Positions 2,975-25,379 of a DNA stretch of 28,305 nt are shown piece after piece (the stretch's first letter is position 1; each line of letters begins with the position of its first letter). Origin of the DNA: an uncultured Pseudomonadota bacterium (GTDB taxonomy: Bacteria; UBA10199; JACPAL01); contig CAYYFU010000001.1 in assembly GCA_964471095.1 (NCBI GenBank), positions 8,138 through 36,442 on the forward strand. Reading direction: 5' to 3'. Both the position numbers and the translations under genes were made by a program. The notes beneath the pieces were generated by a model. It was not told where the DNA came from, searched no databases, and saw nothing but the letters and a program-made list of their open reading frames with translations.

Positions 2975-3001
2975 GCAACCTTTGTCCGGTCCAGCCGACA
3001 A
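2975..3001 (+). promoter_or_regulatory. Sigma28-like promoter copy 1
   Basis: GCAACCTT-N11-GCCGACAA, 26 nt upstream of ATG 3028. Confidence 0.65.
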
Positions 3002-3027
3002 GCCTGTCAGAAGGGTCGGCCATCACC

Positions 3028-3735
3028 ATGGGACTGGGTCCAGACTTTATTTCCTGCCTGCAGAGGGAGTATCAGCCGCCGCCTTCCGGCGGGGGTGACC
3101 CCCTGTTCGCGGAGACAACGGCACGGGTCAAAACGCTGAAAGGTTGCAGTCGGTTCCTCCTGCCCGGGCAGAAGGAGGAGGCGGCTGTCTGGGTCTTTTC
3201 CGGCCTCTGGCGGGATGCCCTTGAGAAGAGGGGGGTAAAGAACCTCTCCCTCCCCGAACAATCGTCAGTCGCCGCGGATATCTACTCCGGGGTCCGCGAG
3301 ACCTATTTCCACTGGCACCTCTTCCCTGCCGGCGGGGCGATCCTCGGGGCGGTCCTTACGCGCCTGCCCAGTGAGGGGCATCCGCCTATGGTACTCGGTG
3401 CAGTGGTGGGGAGTCTGTTGGGGGGGATGTACGGAATGACCGTCGAGGTCCAGGCAAGGGGGGATCTCGCCCATCTGCTTTCTCAAGACCCGGAGCAAGA
3501 GAGCCGGGCGGTTGCCGATTTTCAGACCAACGAGGCCTTTTACTCCGGCCAGCTCTGCCTATCGGCCGTTATCTCCCTCGCCGGTCTCGCTGTCCTGATA
3601 ACACGCCGGGGGTCTCGGTTGAGCCGGAGGGTTGTCTCTTCTGTCGCCGCCTTATGGGTAGTGGCCCTTGCCCCGGAGGCCCTCATCGCAAGACGGAGGG
3701 GGAAACCAACCCAGTTGATGAACATGCTGGTCTAG
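3028..3735 (+). CDS. Hypothetical membrane protein (about 4 C-terminal hydrophobic segments)
   Basis: 235-aa ORF fills the panD-lipoprotein gap; Gly-rich TM-like stretches (AGGAILGAVL, MVLGAVVGSLLGGMYG, LSAVISLAGLAVLI, VVSSVAALWVVALA); preceded by the promoter motif. Confidence 0.7.
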   Translation: MGLGPDFISCLQREYQPPPSGGGDPLFAETTARVKTLKGCSRFLLPGQKEEAAVWVFSGLWRDALEKRGVKNLSLPEQSSVAADIYSGVRETYFHWHLFPAGGAILGAVLTRLPSEGHPPMVLGAVVGSLLGGMYGMTVEVQARGDLAHLLSQDPEQESRAVADFQTNEAFYSGQLCLSAVISLAGLAVLITRRGSRLSRRVVSSVAALWVVALAPEALIARRRGKPTQLMNMLV

Positions 3736-3965
3736 AAAAGGAGCTGCTTATGTCATTTTTTAGCGAAGTTCAGGGCCACAAAAGGACCGGTACTTACGAT
3801 CGAACGGCTGATCGGGTTGCGGTAACAGTCCCGTCGGGTGATTCCGGGACGGGAGGCTGCTGGCGACAGGGATCCGTCCCGTTAGCGGGAATCACCGGAG
3901 TTTTGGGCGTTTGGGTGCCAAGTCTGTTTCGGAGGGTCGTCAGACCACCGTTGGCGCTTGGGTCC

Positions 3966-4463
3966 ATGTTGAGGATGCCGGTGCCGCTCCGGGGCCCCTG
4001 GATGGTTGGCCTGACACTCTGCCTGGCGGCGATCGGATGCGGGCAGGAGGGTAATGGGACAGGTGGGGTTCGGGGTCTCGACGGCATTGATGGCGAGACC
4101 GGTCCCGCCGGTCCAACGGGACCTCGGGGTCCTGAGGGGCCTGAGGGACCGACCGGCCCGAGCGGGGCCGTAGGGGTTTTTGATCCTGCCCTGTGTCATC
4201 TCGTGGAGGAGCAGATTTCTCTGACTTCCACTCAGGCGGTCGAGGCCTCCTGCGCCGAGGATGAATTTCTCGTGAGTGGCGGGTGTGACAACCAAGGTAA
4301 CGGCAGCTGGCTGATTGACGTCTCCATCTTTACGGACAAACCGCTGCCCGGGGGAGGAGGGACGCTCCTCGGTGGGGCCTGGAGGTGTGGGATCTCGGGT
4401 TCAACAGGGGGGTCCGGAAGCCCAACGATCACCGCCTATGCCATCTGCTGCAACTCTCCTTGA
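3966..4463 (+). CDS. Collagen-like (Gly-X-Y) lipoprotein with small Cys-containing C-terminal domain; start uncertain (3750, 3966, 3975 or 4002)
   Basis: VGLTLCLAAIG|C lipobox (Cys 4038), 13 consecutive Gly-X-Y triplets (4056-4172), then ASCAEDEFLVSGGC...WRCG...ITAYAICC. An in-frame ATG at 3750 has a good AAGGAG Shine-Dalgarno. Confidence 0.8.
   Translation: MLRMPVPLRGPWMVGLTLCLAAIGCGQEGNGTGGVRGLDGIDGETGPAGPTGPRGPEGPEGPTGPSGAVGVFDPALCHLVEEQISLTSTQAVEASCAEDEFLVSGGCDNQGNGSWLIDVSIFTDKPLPGGGGTLLGGAWRCGISGSTGGSGSPTITAYAICCNSP
4056..4172 (+). repeat. Collagen triple-helix Gly-X-Y repeat (13 triplets)
   Basis: GTG GVR GLD GID GET GPA GPT GPR GPE GPE GPT GPS GAV. Confidence 0.9.
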
Positions 4464-4515
4464 CAATCCCAAGGTACGGGGATACGGCAGAATGGGGCAT
4501 TAGGGAGGAATTCCA

Positions 4516-5028
4516 ATGAAGACAATCGCAGCTTTCTTCCTCGTCATTTCCCAAGTTTCACTGATACCGGGCGGCCCCCTCTGGGCCTCAACCCCTTCTC
4601 TGTTGCAGGAGAGTCCGGTCGTCCAGCGCCTGTCCGAAGAGGAGATGGGGAACCTCTGGGGCGGGACCTATTCCTCCCAGCTCGACATCGAGAACCCGTA
4701 CCACGACAACTCCATCAACACGACCTCCACCTTTTACTACCGAGTCAGCTACCGGTCGGTCGACGGGGATTCCGGTCAGAATCTCCGCCTGCGCATCTGG
4801 CTGGATGATTACTTGGCCCGAGATGACGTCATGACCACCAACGGCAGCTGGGCCCTGAGTGGTGAGGTCTCCGGTAACTTTTCCGGGAACCTCGTGACAA
4901 GGGACCCGACCGCCTTTGTCGCCGAAATCGTGAAGGACTACGACGGCTCCACCGATACTTATTGCGGCGATTCCGCCACAGATCGTGTCATCCTGGCTCG
5001 GGAATCGATCCTCCTGCATCCCTACTAG
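4516..5028 (+). CDS. Secreted protein with Sec signal plus double-glycine leader peptide (putative C39 substrate)
   Basis: GGAGG Shine-Dalgarno; signal peptide MKTIAAFFLVISQVSLIPGGPLWA; LSEEEMGNLWGG at residues 39-50 (4630-4665) matches L(-12)S(-11)xxE(-8)L/M(-7)xxI/L(-4)xGG; ~120-aa beta-rich mature part. Confidence 0.85.
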   Translation: MKTIAAFFLVISQVSLIPGGPLWASTPSLLQESPVVQRLSEEEMGNLWGGTYSSQLDIENPYHDNSINTTSTFYYRVSYRSVDGDSGQNLRLRIWLDDYLARDDVMTTNGSWALSGEVSGNFSGNLVTRDPTAFVAEIVKDYDGSTDTYCGDSATDRVILARESILLHPY

Positions 5029-24232: not shown

Positions 24233-24246
24233 GCCAAACTTTTCCC

Positions 24247-24273
24247 GCAACCTTGTCGGACAACTCACGATAA
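24247..24273 (+). promoter_or_regulatory. Sigma28-like promoter copy 5
   Basis: GCAACCTT-N11-CACGATAA-N10-ATG(24284); lies within AAACTTTTCCCGCAACCTT (24236-24254), identical to 25342-25360. Confidence 0.65.
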
Positions 24274-24283
24274 CCGGCTTGTC

Positions 24284-25339
24284 ATGGTCCTTGGCCCGCC
24301 CATTTCGTCCCGGCCGATCACTTGGGAATCCTCTCCATCAGCCGACCAGCCGCCCGATTCTCCCGCCTCGCGCCTCTTCAAGACGACCTTCAGCATTGCC
24401 GGGCTCACTCTAGCTGTCGTTCTGGCGGGGAAGGGGGCGGGCGGATCAACGCTGGCACAATTCGAGAAGCTCCTTCCGAAACTGATTAACGGCATCGTCG
24501 CGGGAGGCAAAGCGGTCAAAATTCAGATCGGATTGCTTCTGTTTTACGTCCGAAAGGACCCGGCGTTTCAGGACCATGCGCGTGAGGTTGTCTTTGGGCG
24601 ATGGAGAGGGGCTCCCGCCAATAGCGAGCTGCGGGTGGTGTTGGACGACCTCCTGAAATTGGTCAAAAATCCCCCTCCGGAGAAGAGGCTTAGGGTGGTT
24701 AAGAAGGCCGTTGTCCGGCAACGACACAGGCCGATCGATGGACCGCTCGCAGAGGTTGCCCGGTTGCTGATCGCCAAGCGGGAATCACTCAGGTTGTCCC
24801 AACGAGTCGTCGCCACAGGGGCCGGTGTCGACCGTTCCTATTACTGTCGATTGGAGGGGGGGAAGGCATGTCTGCCCCACTCTCTGCTGAGGGTATTGCG
24901 CTTTTTCAACGAGCGCGCCCCCTACACCGACGCTGAACTGATCGCGATCTACCGGGCCTGGCGGCCAACGGAGATCAAGACCGAATGGTTCGATCTGGAG
25001 CGGGGAATCTTTTGGGTCAAACTTCCGCCCGGAATGACCCTCGAGCAGGCGATCGCCCTCTCCTTAAGTCAGTTCGCGCAACAACTTCTGCGCGACAAGG
25101 GGCTCTTGCAGGCAGCGATCGCCGAGGCGATCGGGCGCACCAGCGGCTCGTCGACCGACCTCTTCTCCGGACTCACCCATCACCTCAAGTTAGAACAATT
25201 GGAGGCCTTGGCGCGACTCGGCCGGGTTGACGGCTCCCTCGCGTACCTCGCCGGCCGCCCCTATCTCGCTGATTTTTGGACGATCGGCATCCGGAGGACC
25301 AACCGGAGTTTCCGCCGACCGGTCGCCGCCCGGTTCTGA
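24284..25339 (+). CDS. Double XRE-HTH protein, paralog of the upstream gene, with Ser/Pro-rich N-terminus and a hydrophobic segment
   Basis: LIAKRESLRLSQRVVATGAGVDRSYYCRLEGG; GIFWVKLPPGMTL; DKGLLQAAIAEAIG...LEQLEALARL. Confidence 0.78.
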   Translation: MVLGPPISSRPITWESSPSADQPPDSPASRLFKTTFSIAGLTLAVVLAGKGAGGSTLAQFEKLLPKLINGIVAGGKAVKIQIGLLLFYVRKDPAFQDHAREVVFGRWRGAPANSELRVVLDDLLKLVKNPPPEKRLRVVKKAVVRQRHRPIDGPLAEVARLLIAKRESLRLSQRVVATGAGVDRSYYCRLEGGKACLPHSLLRVLRFFNERAPYTDAELIAIYRAWRPTEIKTEWFDLERGIFWVKLPPGMTLEQAIALSLSQFAQQLLRDKGLLQAAIAEAIGRTSGSSTDLFSGLTHHLKLEQLEALARLGRVDGSLAYLAGRPYLADFWTIGIRRTNRSFRRPVAARF

Positions 25340-25352
25340 CAAAACTTTTCCC

Positions 25353-25379
25353 GCAACCTTTCCGATCCTTTGCCGAGAC
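25353..25379 (+). promoter_or_regulatory. Sigma28-like promoter copy 6
   Basis: GCAACCTT-N11-GCCGAGAC-N10-ATG(25390). Confidence 0.65.

Follow-up and report, generated by a model that had tools for sequence, protein, structure and literature searches.

A candidate alternative-sigma promoter class pairing a sigma-28-like -10 element with a GCAAC -35 element in an uncultured bacterial lineage

Examining a 28,305-nucleotide (nt) stretch of DNA from an uncultured Pseudomonadota bacterium (contig CAYYFU010000001.1, positions 8,138 to 36,442; hereafter the window), we found exactly six copies of a bipartite motif of the form GCAAC(C/T)TT-N11-G(C/A)CGAYAA, at 2975+, 12005-, 19034-, 22960+, 24247+ and 25353+. 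These six sites are very probably promoters read by one alternative sigma factor of the sigma-70 family, and, with moderate confidence, we suggest that this factor may be a member of the sigma-28 (FliA/WhiG) family that has been re-specified at the -35 element. A sequence-only reading of the same DNA had listed six sites with an invariant 11-nt spacer, each oriented toward a gene start. All six were located as claimed, far above shuffle expectation; the spacer has the same length in 6/6 sites, every copy is intergenic and faces the adjacent gene, and at four of them (19034-, 22960+, 24247+ and 25353+) the ATG lies exactly 10 nt past the second octamer, as that reading had said. The sites are listed here with predicted transcription starts and weight-matrix scores; genes behind them carry the letter of their promoter (A1 and A2 for promoter A).

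Promoter A, 2975..3001, + strand: GCAACCTT-N11-GCCGACAA; predicted start 3009 (A); ATG at 3028; 26.9 bits.
Promoter B, 11979..12005, - strand: GCAACCTT-N11-GCCGACAA; predicted start 11971 (A); ATG at 11932; 34.8 bits, the best score in the window.
Promoter C, 19008..19034, - strand: GCAACCGG-N11-GCCGATAA; predicted start 19000 (A); ATG at 18997; 32.3 bits.
Promoter D, 22960..22986, + strand: GCAACTTT-N11-GCCGACGA; predicted start 22994 (A); ATG at 22997; 20.8 bits.
Promoter E, 24247..24273, + strand: GCAACCTT-N11-CACGATAA; predicted start 24281 (G); ATG at 24284; 25.9 bits.
Promoter F, 25353..25379, + strand: GCAACCTT-N11-GCCGAGAC; predicted start 25387 (G); ATG at 25390; 24.5 bits.

The motif is strongly over-represented in the 28.3-kb window, where GCAAC-N16-CGA was observed 10 times against 1.18 expected and the fuller pattern GCAACYKK-N11-SMCGANR, with at most one mismatch, 7 times against 0.58 expected, a count that 0/100 shuffles reached. 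Using a weight matrix trained on 28 sites from other organisms, with the window sites excluded, we found that the six sites rank top in the window at 20.8-34.8 bits; the next window position scores 9.8 bits, and the best score across 30 random control windows was 15.4 bits. The 11-nt spacer is constant in length and variable in sequence, and the flanks are not conserved, indicating two separately recognised boxes rather than a repeated element. Beyond the features listed by the earlier reading, the motif flanks carry an A-tract 5-12 nt 5' of GCAAC, the base directly 5' of GCAAC is A or C, and a T follows the first octamer, giving GCAACCTTT. The seventh match, a look-alike at 930-956 (+), GCAACCTT-N11-GTCGAAAA (GTCGA), scored 3.3 bits with the same matrix and was set aside as a chance match; it lies antisense within a lipoprotein open reading frame (ORF) that extends past the left end of the window.

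With their fixed spacing, their orientation and a short, fixed distance to the start codon, the two boxes qualify as candidate -35 and -10 elements of the kind found in sigma-70-family promoters. The sigma-28 consensus of E. coli is TAAAGTTT-n11-GCCGATAA (PMC2859248), and the second octamers of the window, GCCGACAA (twice), GCCGATAA, GCCGACGA, CACGATAA and GCCGAGAC, agree with its -10 element, the lineage consensus being G(C/A)CGATAA. The spacing agrees as well: every related site, like 6/6 in the window, has 11 nt between the octamers (pentamer-N14-octamer). The -35 element does not follow TAAAG(TTT): it reads GCAAC(C/T)TT throughout, the central AA and the T-run being all that the two have in common. 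In the open complex at P. aeruginosa fliC, the -10 octamer spans -15 to -8, TCTAAAG spans -36 to -30, and the A at -11 is flipped out (PMC12784957). Laid on this frame, GCAAC falls exactly at the position of TAAAG, and the A of CGA is the -11 base.

This frame also predicts where transcription would begin. In the fliC complex the start lies 8 nt past the octamer, and the window motif is predicted to behave alike, with initiation at the purine 8 nt past the octamer (the positions listed above). The eighth nucleotide past the octamer is a purine in 24/27 sites and never C; among the window sites it is a purine in 6/6 and is preceded by a pyrimidine in 5/6. At promoters C, D, E and F the predicted leaders are 3 nt long and lack a ribosome-binding site, which would make these mRNAs near-leaderless. 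Elsewhere the predicted leaders are 19 nt (promoter A, where the ATG lies 26 nt past the octamer) and 39 nt with AGGAGG (promoter B).

We looked for the motif at orthologous positions in other organisms. A set of 1.84 billion representative proteins includes 8 relatives of gene C, and on the contigs of five of these relatives, from five organisms, the motif stands just 5' of the orthologue in 5/5 examined. These orthologues are 30-44% identical and their contigs range in G+C content from 0.47 to 0.59, values that point to conservation of the motif by function rather than recent descent. Gene C and the five orthologous sites are as follows.

Gene C, 17219..18997, - strand: 592-residue protein with an HEFGH motif and a hydrophobic C-terminus; no family.
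Locus L227, gene C orthologue: GCAACCTCT-N10-TCCGATGG, then 6 nt to the ATG.
Locus L229, gene C orthologue: GCAACTTTT-N10-GACGATAT, then 9 nt to an ATG.
Locus L228, gene C orthologue: AAAACAAAT-N10-GCCGAAAA, a weaker site.
Locus L232, gene C orthologue: a perfect GCAACCTTT-N10-GCCGATAA with the A-tract.
Locus L233, gene C orthologue: GCAACTATT-N10-TGCGATAT.

Extra copies of the motif stand ahead of neighbouring genes in L229, L232 and L233. At 1537-1605 of L229, two divergent copies lie back to back with overlapping A/T-tracts, one facing the gene C orthologue and the other a gene for an Rce1-like protease. In a relative whose GltX is 77% identical (L081, GCA_016180845.1), GAAACCTCT-N10-CCCGATAA directly precedes a family-less gene for a hypothetical protein of 263 residues, and in L230 a copy precedes a DUF4423 gene. 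HTH-containing DUF4423 genes were seen behind motif copies in two organisms, in L119 and in L230 (1-179), and they may be a recurrent member of the regulon.

Across 197 kb of DNA from the lineage, which NCBI labels only 'Deltaproteobacteria bacterium', GCAAC-N16-CGA occurs 44 times, about 20 of these occurrences being forced by the selection of the loci. The variants ending in CGC, CGG and CGT occur 3-5 times each (CGT 3 times), and other spacings (N13-N19) give 6-12 occurrences against the 44 for N16. Near distant GltX relatives (at most 56-58% identity; GTDB scan, 80 loci among the matches listed) the motif is not enriched, with 5 occurrences in 1.2 Mb.

The motif also recurs more widely in metagenomes. 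Scanning metagenome contigs with the exact pattern GCAACCTTT-N10-GCCGAYAA returned at least 120 stretches, 97 of them unique among the matches listed, a number that, on expectation alone, should be far above that for a random 16-17-base pattern. By a lenient filter, 57/97 of the unique stretches listed fall in sequence free of long ORFs and have a start codon no more than 200 nt ahead. The matches contain two recurring groups: mid-GC contigs from sediment, sludge and groundwater, and high-GC contigs from soil. Mid-GC contigs have the same A-tract and often second and third copies by a looser pattern; one is labelled 'Deltaproteobacteria bacterium', and genes shared with the window lineage include a beta-CASP gene in L169 (49% identity) and a PAP2 gene in L173. 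In the high-GC soil contigs, the form tCAC-GCAACCTTTCG-N8-GCCGATAAC stands ahead of small glycine-rich proteins and lipoproteins. The promoter class is therefore present in an unrelated-looking high-GC group as well; the 'six-copy' motif of the earlier reading has six copies in the window, but that description understates what is a lineage-wide promoter class found also in a separate soil group.

Two protein sets recur behind the high-GC form: a family of about 110 residues (MSGIGGPGGVGGPKGPGGP...AADIAAGRLTPQQAVDRLVDEIAG...) that is always found there (L149, L153, L168, L182, L188 and L194), and lipoproteins in L127, L183, L186 and L196. We considered whether the small glycine-rich proteins are FlgM anti-sigma-28 factors and rejected this, as they had no FlgM match in Pfam and none by profile against PDB sequences. 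Viral contigs gave no signal, only 20 scattered single matches.

As to which sigma factor reads these promoters, we favour a relative of sigma-28 on the strength of the spacer, the -10 octamer with its near-invariant first G and its need for A, not T, after CG, and the apparent regulon size (roughly one motif site per 5-20 kb). A change in region 4.2, where S224 and Q228 contact the -35 element in P. aeruginosa, would shift the -35 preference of such a factor from TAAAG to GCAAC; it would still read the extended -10 octamer GCCGATAA across an 11-nt spacer and melt the A at -11. Its regulon would comprise lineage-restricted envelope, secreted and HTH proteins encoded in variable blocks between conserved housekeeping genes, and we infer that the motif-bearing genes are co-regulated. 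Extending this, we tentatively propose, with more doubt than confidence, that a -35 re-specified sigma-28 factor could act globally throughout an uncultured 'Deltaproteobacteria' clade, on several hundred genes that are lineage-specific and largely near-leaderless, with an independent or related counterpart in the high-GC soil group.

Several observations weigh against a sigma-28 relative. GCAAC shares only 'AA' with TAAAG, and E. coli sigma-28 is inactive once T1, A3 or G5 in the -35 element of aer is changed singly (PMC2859248). 'AAC' at -35 is, together with CGT at -10, a hallmark of promoters read by extracytoplasmic function (ECF) sigma factors (PMC8103513). Among genes downstream of motif copies at the metagenome loci, 0/52 belong to a flagellar or chemotaxis family by Pfam above noise (the 52 scanned proteins include FliT matches at E ~0.01, below the FliT cut-off), and the window holds no flagellar or chemotaxis genes. 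A search for the region-2 signature found no sigma gene within the window or the fetched lineage loci; across all fetched loci it found only an RpoD-like gene (L128) and an ECF-like gene (L133), neither of them downstream of a motif copy. The divergent FliA/WhiG-type sigma of the earlier reading thus stands in part: the motif is a real bipartite alternative-sigma promoter whose -10 element and spacer are those of the FliA consensus, but the FliA/WhiG class of its sigma is a proposal, given the ECF-like 'AAC' and the intolerance of E. coli sigma-28 to changes at three positions of TAAAG.

The main competing explanation is a sigma factor of the ECF class (group 4) whose regulon would be unusually large, which we regard as a serious possibility while not favouring it. 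GCAAC(C)TTT would then be a GGAAC-type -35 element and CGA(T/C)AA a variant of the CGT-type -10 element, AAC-N16-CG being the usual spacing. In B. subtilis, promoters of sigma-W, -X and -M have TGAAAC, TGTAAC or TGCAAC, then N16-17, then CGTA, CGAC or CGTC, often with CTTT after the AAC, and this resemblance counts in favour of an ECF factor. So do the hallmark AAC (PMC8103513) within GCAAC of all sites, the many envelope targets (lipoproteins B and A2, membrane proteins A1 and C, and secreted peptidases in L166 and L169), and the far greater diversity of specificity among ECF factors than within sigma-28. The -10 element argues the other way, because CGT is not what follows the spacer (GCAAC-N16-CGT 3 times against 44 for CGA in the 197 kb) and because the conserved block is 8 nt long with a near-invariant first G, resembling an extended -10 element; the extended -10 is read by domain 3, which ECF factors lack (PMC12784957). 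The density of sites would imply hundreds of targets, unusual for an ECF factor, and in about 0.2 Mb of lineage DNA we saw no autoregulated sigma/anti-sigma operon, nor an ECF-like gene downstream of any motif copy.

It is improbable that the motif is instead the operator of a DNA-binding regulator such as the multi-HTH proteins D, E and F or the DUF4423 proteins. Autoregulation would fit the placement of three of the six sites ahead of mutually paralogous HTH-protein genes, and the copies ahead of DUF4423 genes in L119 and L230. The boxes, however, are neither palindromic nor directly repeated, they are spaced like -35 and -10 elements and stand at a matching distance (mostly 5-11 nt) from the start codon, a purine recurs at a fixed 8 nt downstream, and many other organisms carry the motif, although a word-index search found no homologue of protein D in them. 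Still less credible, to the point of being effectively refuted by the foreign-site matrix and the orthologue footprint, is an origin of the sites by chance or as the ends of a repeated mobile element. The motif-bearing genes do sit in blocks that relatives lack, as a mobile element might, but chance is opposed by the shuffle statistics and the matrix, and a repeat by the conservation of the two boxes without spacer or flanks; the motif is also retained at orthologous positions in five other organisms, and the matches in viral contigs are scattered single ones.

The closest known systems bracket the motif from two sides. With the class 3 flagellar sigma-28 (FliA) promoters of Enterobacteria and Pseudomonas it shares the -10 octamer consensus, the 11-nt spacer, the T-run after the -35 pentamer and the A at -11, but it differs in having GCAAC rather than TAAAG, an upstream A-tract, targets that, as far as seen, are non-flagellar, and many predicted near-leaderless transcripts. 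In Bdellovibrio bacteriovorus, TTAAG-N16-CCGATA precedes 92/140 attack-phase promoters, most of them non-flagellar (PMC3627812), evidence that FliA can take on global control of genes unrelated to the flagellum through promoters whose -35 element deviates. Common to that attack-phase regulon and the window is a sigma-28-like promoter on many non-flagellar genes (surface proteins, proteases and uncharacterised genes) with a -35 element that likewise deviates from TAAAG; the -35 sequences differ, and the window lineage is known from metagenome bins and DNA sequence alone. ECF promoters (PMC8103513) have in common with the motif the AAC core and T-run at -35, the CG 16 nt past AAC, and many envelope targets, whereas the motif has CGA rather than CGT, an 8-nt block with an extended -10-like G, and an apparently much larger regulon.

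Streptomyces WhiG and chlamydial sigma-28 are sigma-28-family factors with a non-flagellar programme, in line with the analogy drawn by the earlier reading. Neither is known to depart from the canonical TAAA -35 element, which the window motif lacks. The stage-specific programme of the earlier reading and the likeness to predatory or intracellular bacteria are, as we see them, a hypothesis by analogy with the Bdellovibrio precedent (PMC3627812). In architecture the motif matches known promoters of groups 3 and 4; what sets it apart is the specific hybrid, in which an ECF-like -35 element is joined to a sigma-28 -10 octamer, an A-tract and frequent predicted near-leaderless starts. A literal-string literature search did not find this hybrid motif, which is weak evidence of absence.

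For a lineage represented solely by metagenome bins, the motif makes gene regulation accessible through sequence, and from DNA alone it allows a large co-regulated set of otherwise unannotatable genes, together with their start sites, to be predicted. Should the sigma factor prove to be a FliA relative, it would be the second case after Bdellovibrio in which a flagellar sigma factor was recruited as a global regulator, a natural experiment in -35 re-targeting and in the co-evolution of region 4.2 with its promoters; a re-specified sigma-28 might also signify a Bdellovibrio-like life-stage programme in organisms that have never been cultured. An ECF factor would be of note for an unusually large regulon and a sigma-28-like extended -10 element. 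Under either sigma factor, the promoter might find use as an orthogonal part and in marking the accessory genome of the clade.

The housekeeping genes of the window appear to be transcribed differently. As the earlier reading had reported, the motif does not precede them. Sigma-70-like hexamers take its place at panD, yceD, gltX and the antitoxin gene, with TTGAAT-N17-TAGATT then 6 nt to the ATG at gltX and TTGAGT-N16-TTAGGT then 7 nt to the ATG at yceD. The hexamers of gltX, yceD and panD (14515-14556 and 2511-2572) stop 6-10 nt ahead of the ATG, and no Shine-Dalgarno sequence is present. The short distance from promoter to ATG at gltX and yceD makes leaderless starts seem general in the organism, so that leaderless translation may not be specific to the motif regulon. 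A generic sigma-70 and terminator scan was not above shuffles and was uninformative, and Rfam and tRNA scans of the window gave no matches.

By Pfam, NCBIfam and ORF reading, the window has a conserved backbone of an outer-membrane-like gene, yceD, panD, ilvC, a Memo-like gene, gltX, a PAP2 gene and a gene for a 190-residue protein. Three variable blocks break up this backbone, which in the relatives L081, L230 and L231 is contiguous or differently filled, and all six motif copies sit within the variable blocks. Promoter A lies 22 nt past the panD stop, at the edge of block 3028-8618, which is absent between panD and ilvC in the same three relatives. The genes behind the promoters, other than gene C, are as follows.

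Genes after promoter A, 3028..8618, + strand: the first (A1) encodes a 235-residue membrane protein of no family.
A2, within 3654-4463, + strand: collagen-like lipoprotein, behind promoter A.
4516-5028, + strand: 170-residue secreted protein with a double-glycine motif (..NLWGG), behind promoter A.
5038-7062, + strand: fusion of Lnt (apolipoprotein N-acyltransferase) with a C39 peptidase, behind promoter A.
7059-8618, + strand: B12-binding radical SAM enzyme, behind promoter A.
Gene B, 11105..11932, - strand: 275-residue lipoprotein (lipobox LIGC); no Pfam or NCBIfam family.
Gene D, 22997..24232, + strand: 411-residue protein with XRE-type HTH domains, behind promoter D.
Gene E, 24284..25339, + strand: 351-residue XRE-type HTH protein, a paralogue of D (26% identity over 179 residues).
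Gene F, 25390-27009, + strand: 539-residue protein of no family, its C-terminus resembling the HTH module of D.
Gene G, 27012-28205, + strand: 397-residue protein of no family, its N-terminal region paralogous to that of F.

We infer that the promoter A genes (3028..8618) are co-transcribed, and probably F and G as well, G beginning 3 nt past the F stop. For gene B, the true start is the ATG at 11932, 46 nt past the octamer and equipped with an AGGAGG ribosome-binding site. No homologue of gene D was found among 5.8 billion proteins by a word-index search. The earlier description of these as orphan genes is apt in that they are lineage-restricted or family-less, and overstated in that two of the six have XRE-type HTH domains and the 592-residue gene C has its 8 relatives.

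Further features of the blocks and gene models stood out. Block 3654-8618 resembles a peptide-modification cluster of the kind that makes ribosomally synthesized and post-translationally modified peptides (RiPP-like), having the double-glycine protein, the Lnt-C39 fusion, itself an unusual architecture, and the B12 radical SAM enzyme, with the collagen-like lipoprotein ahead. The small variable block 10515-13109 contains a PemK/MazF-family toxin with a 78-residue upstream partner, the motif-driven lipoprotein and a Fic-domain protein, whose gene is divergent from promoter B. At 1407-2510 (-), yceD and the next, outer-membrane-like gene form a single uninterrupted ORF of 367 codons, where L081 has two genes (181 and 198 residues) with a gap; a lost stop codon, a real fusion or a sequence error could account for this. 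At 13126-14814 (-), a beta-CASP/RMMBL ORF of 562 residues begins with about 96 codons that are antisense to the 5' end of gltX and match the gltX region of relatives without the beta-CASP gene; its real start is probably near codon 105-112.

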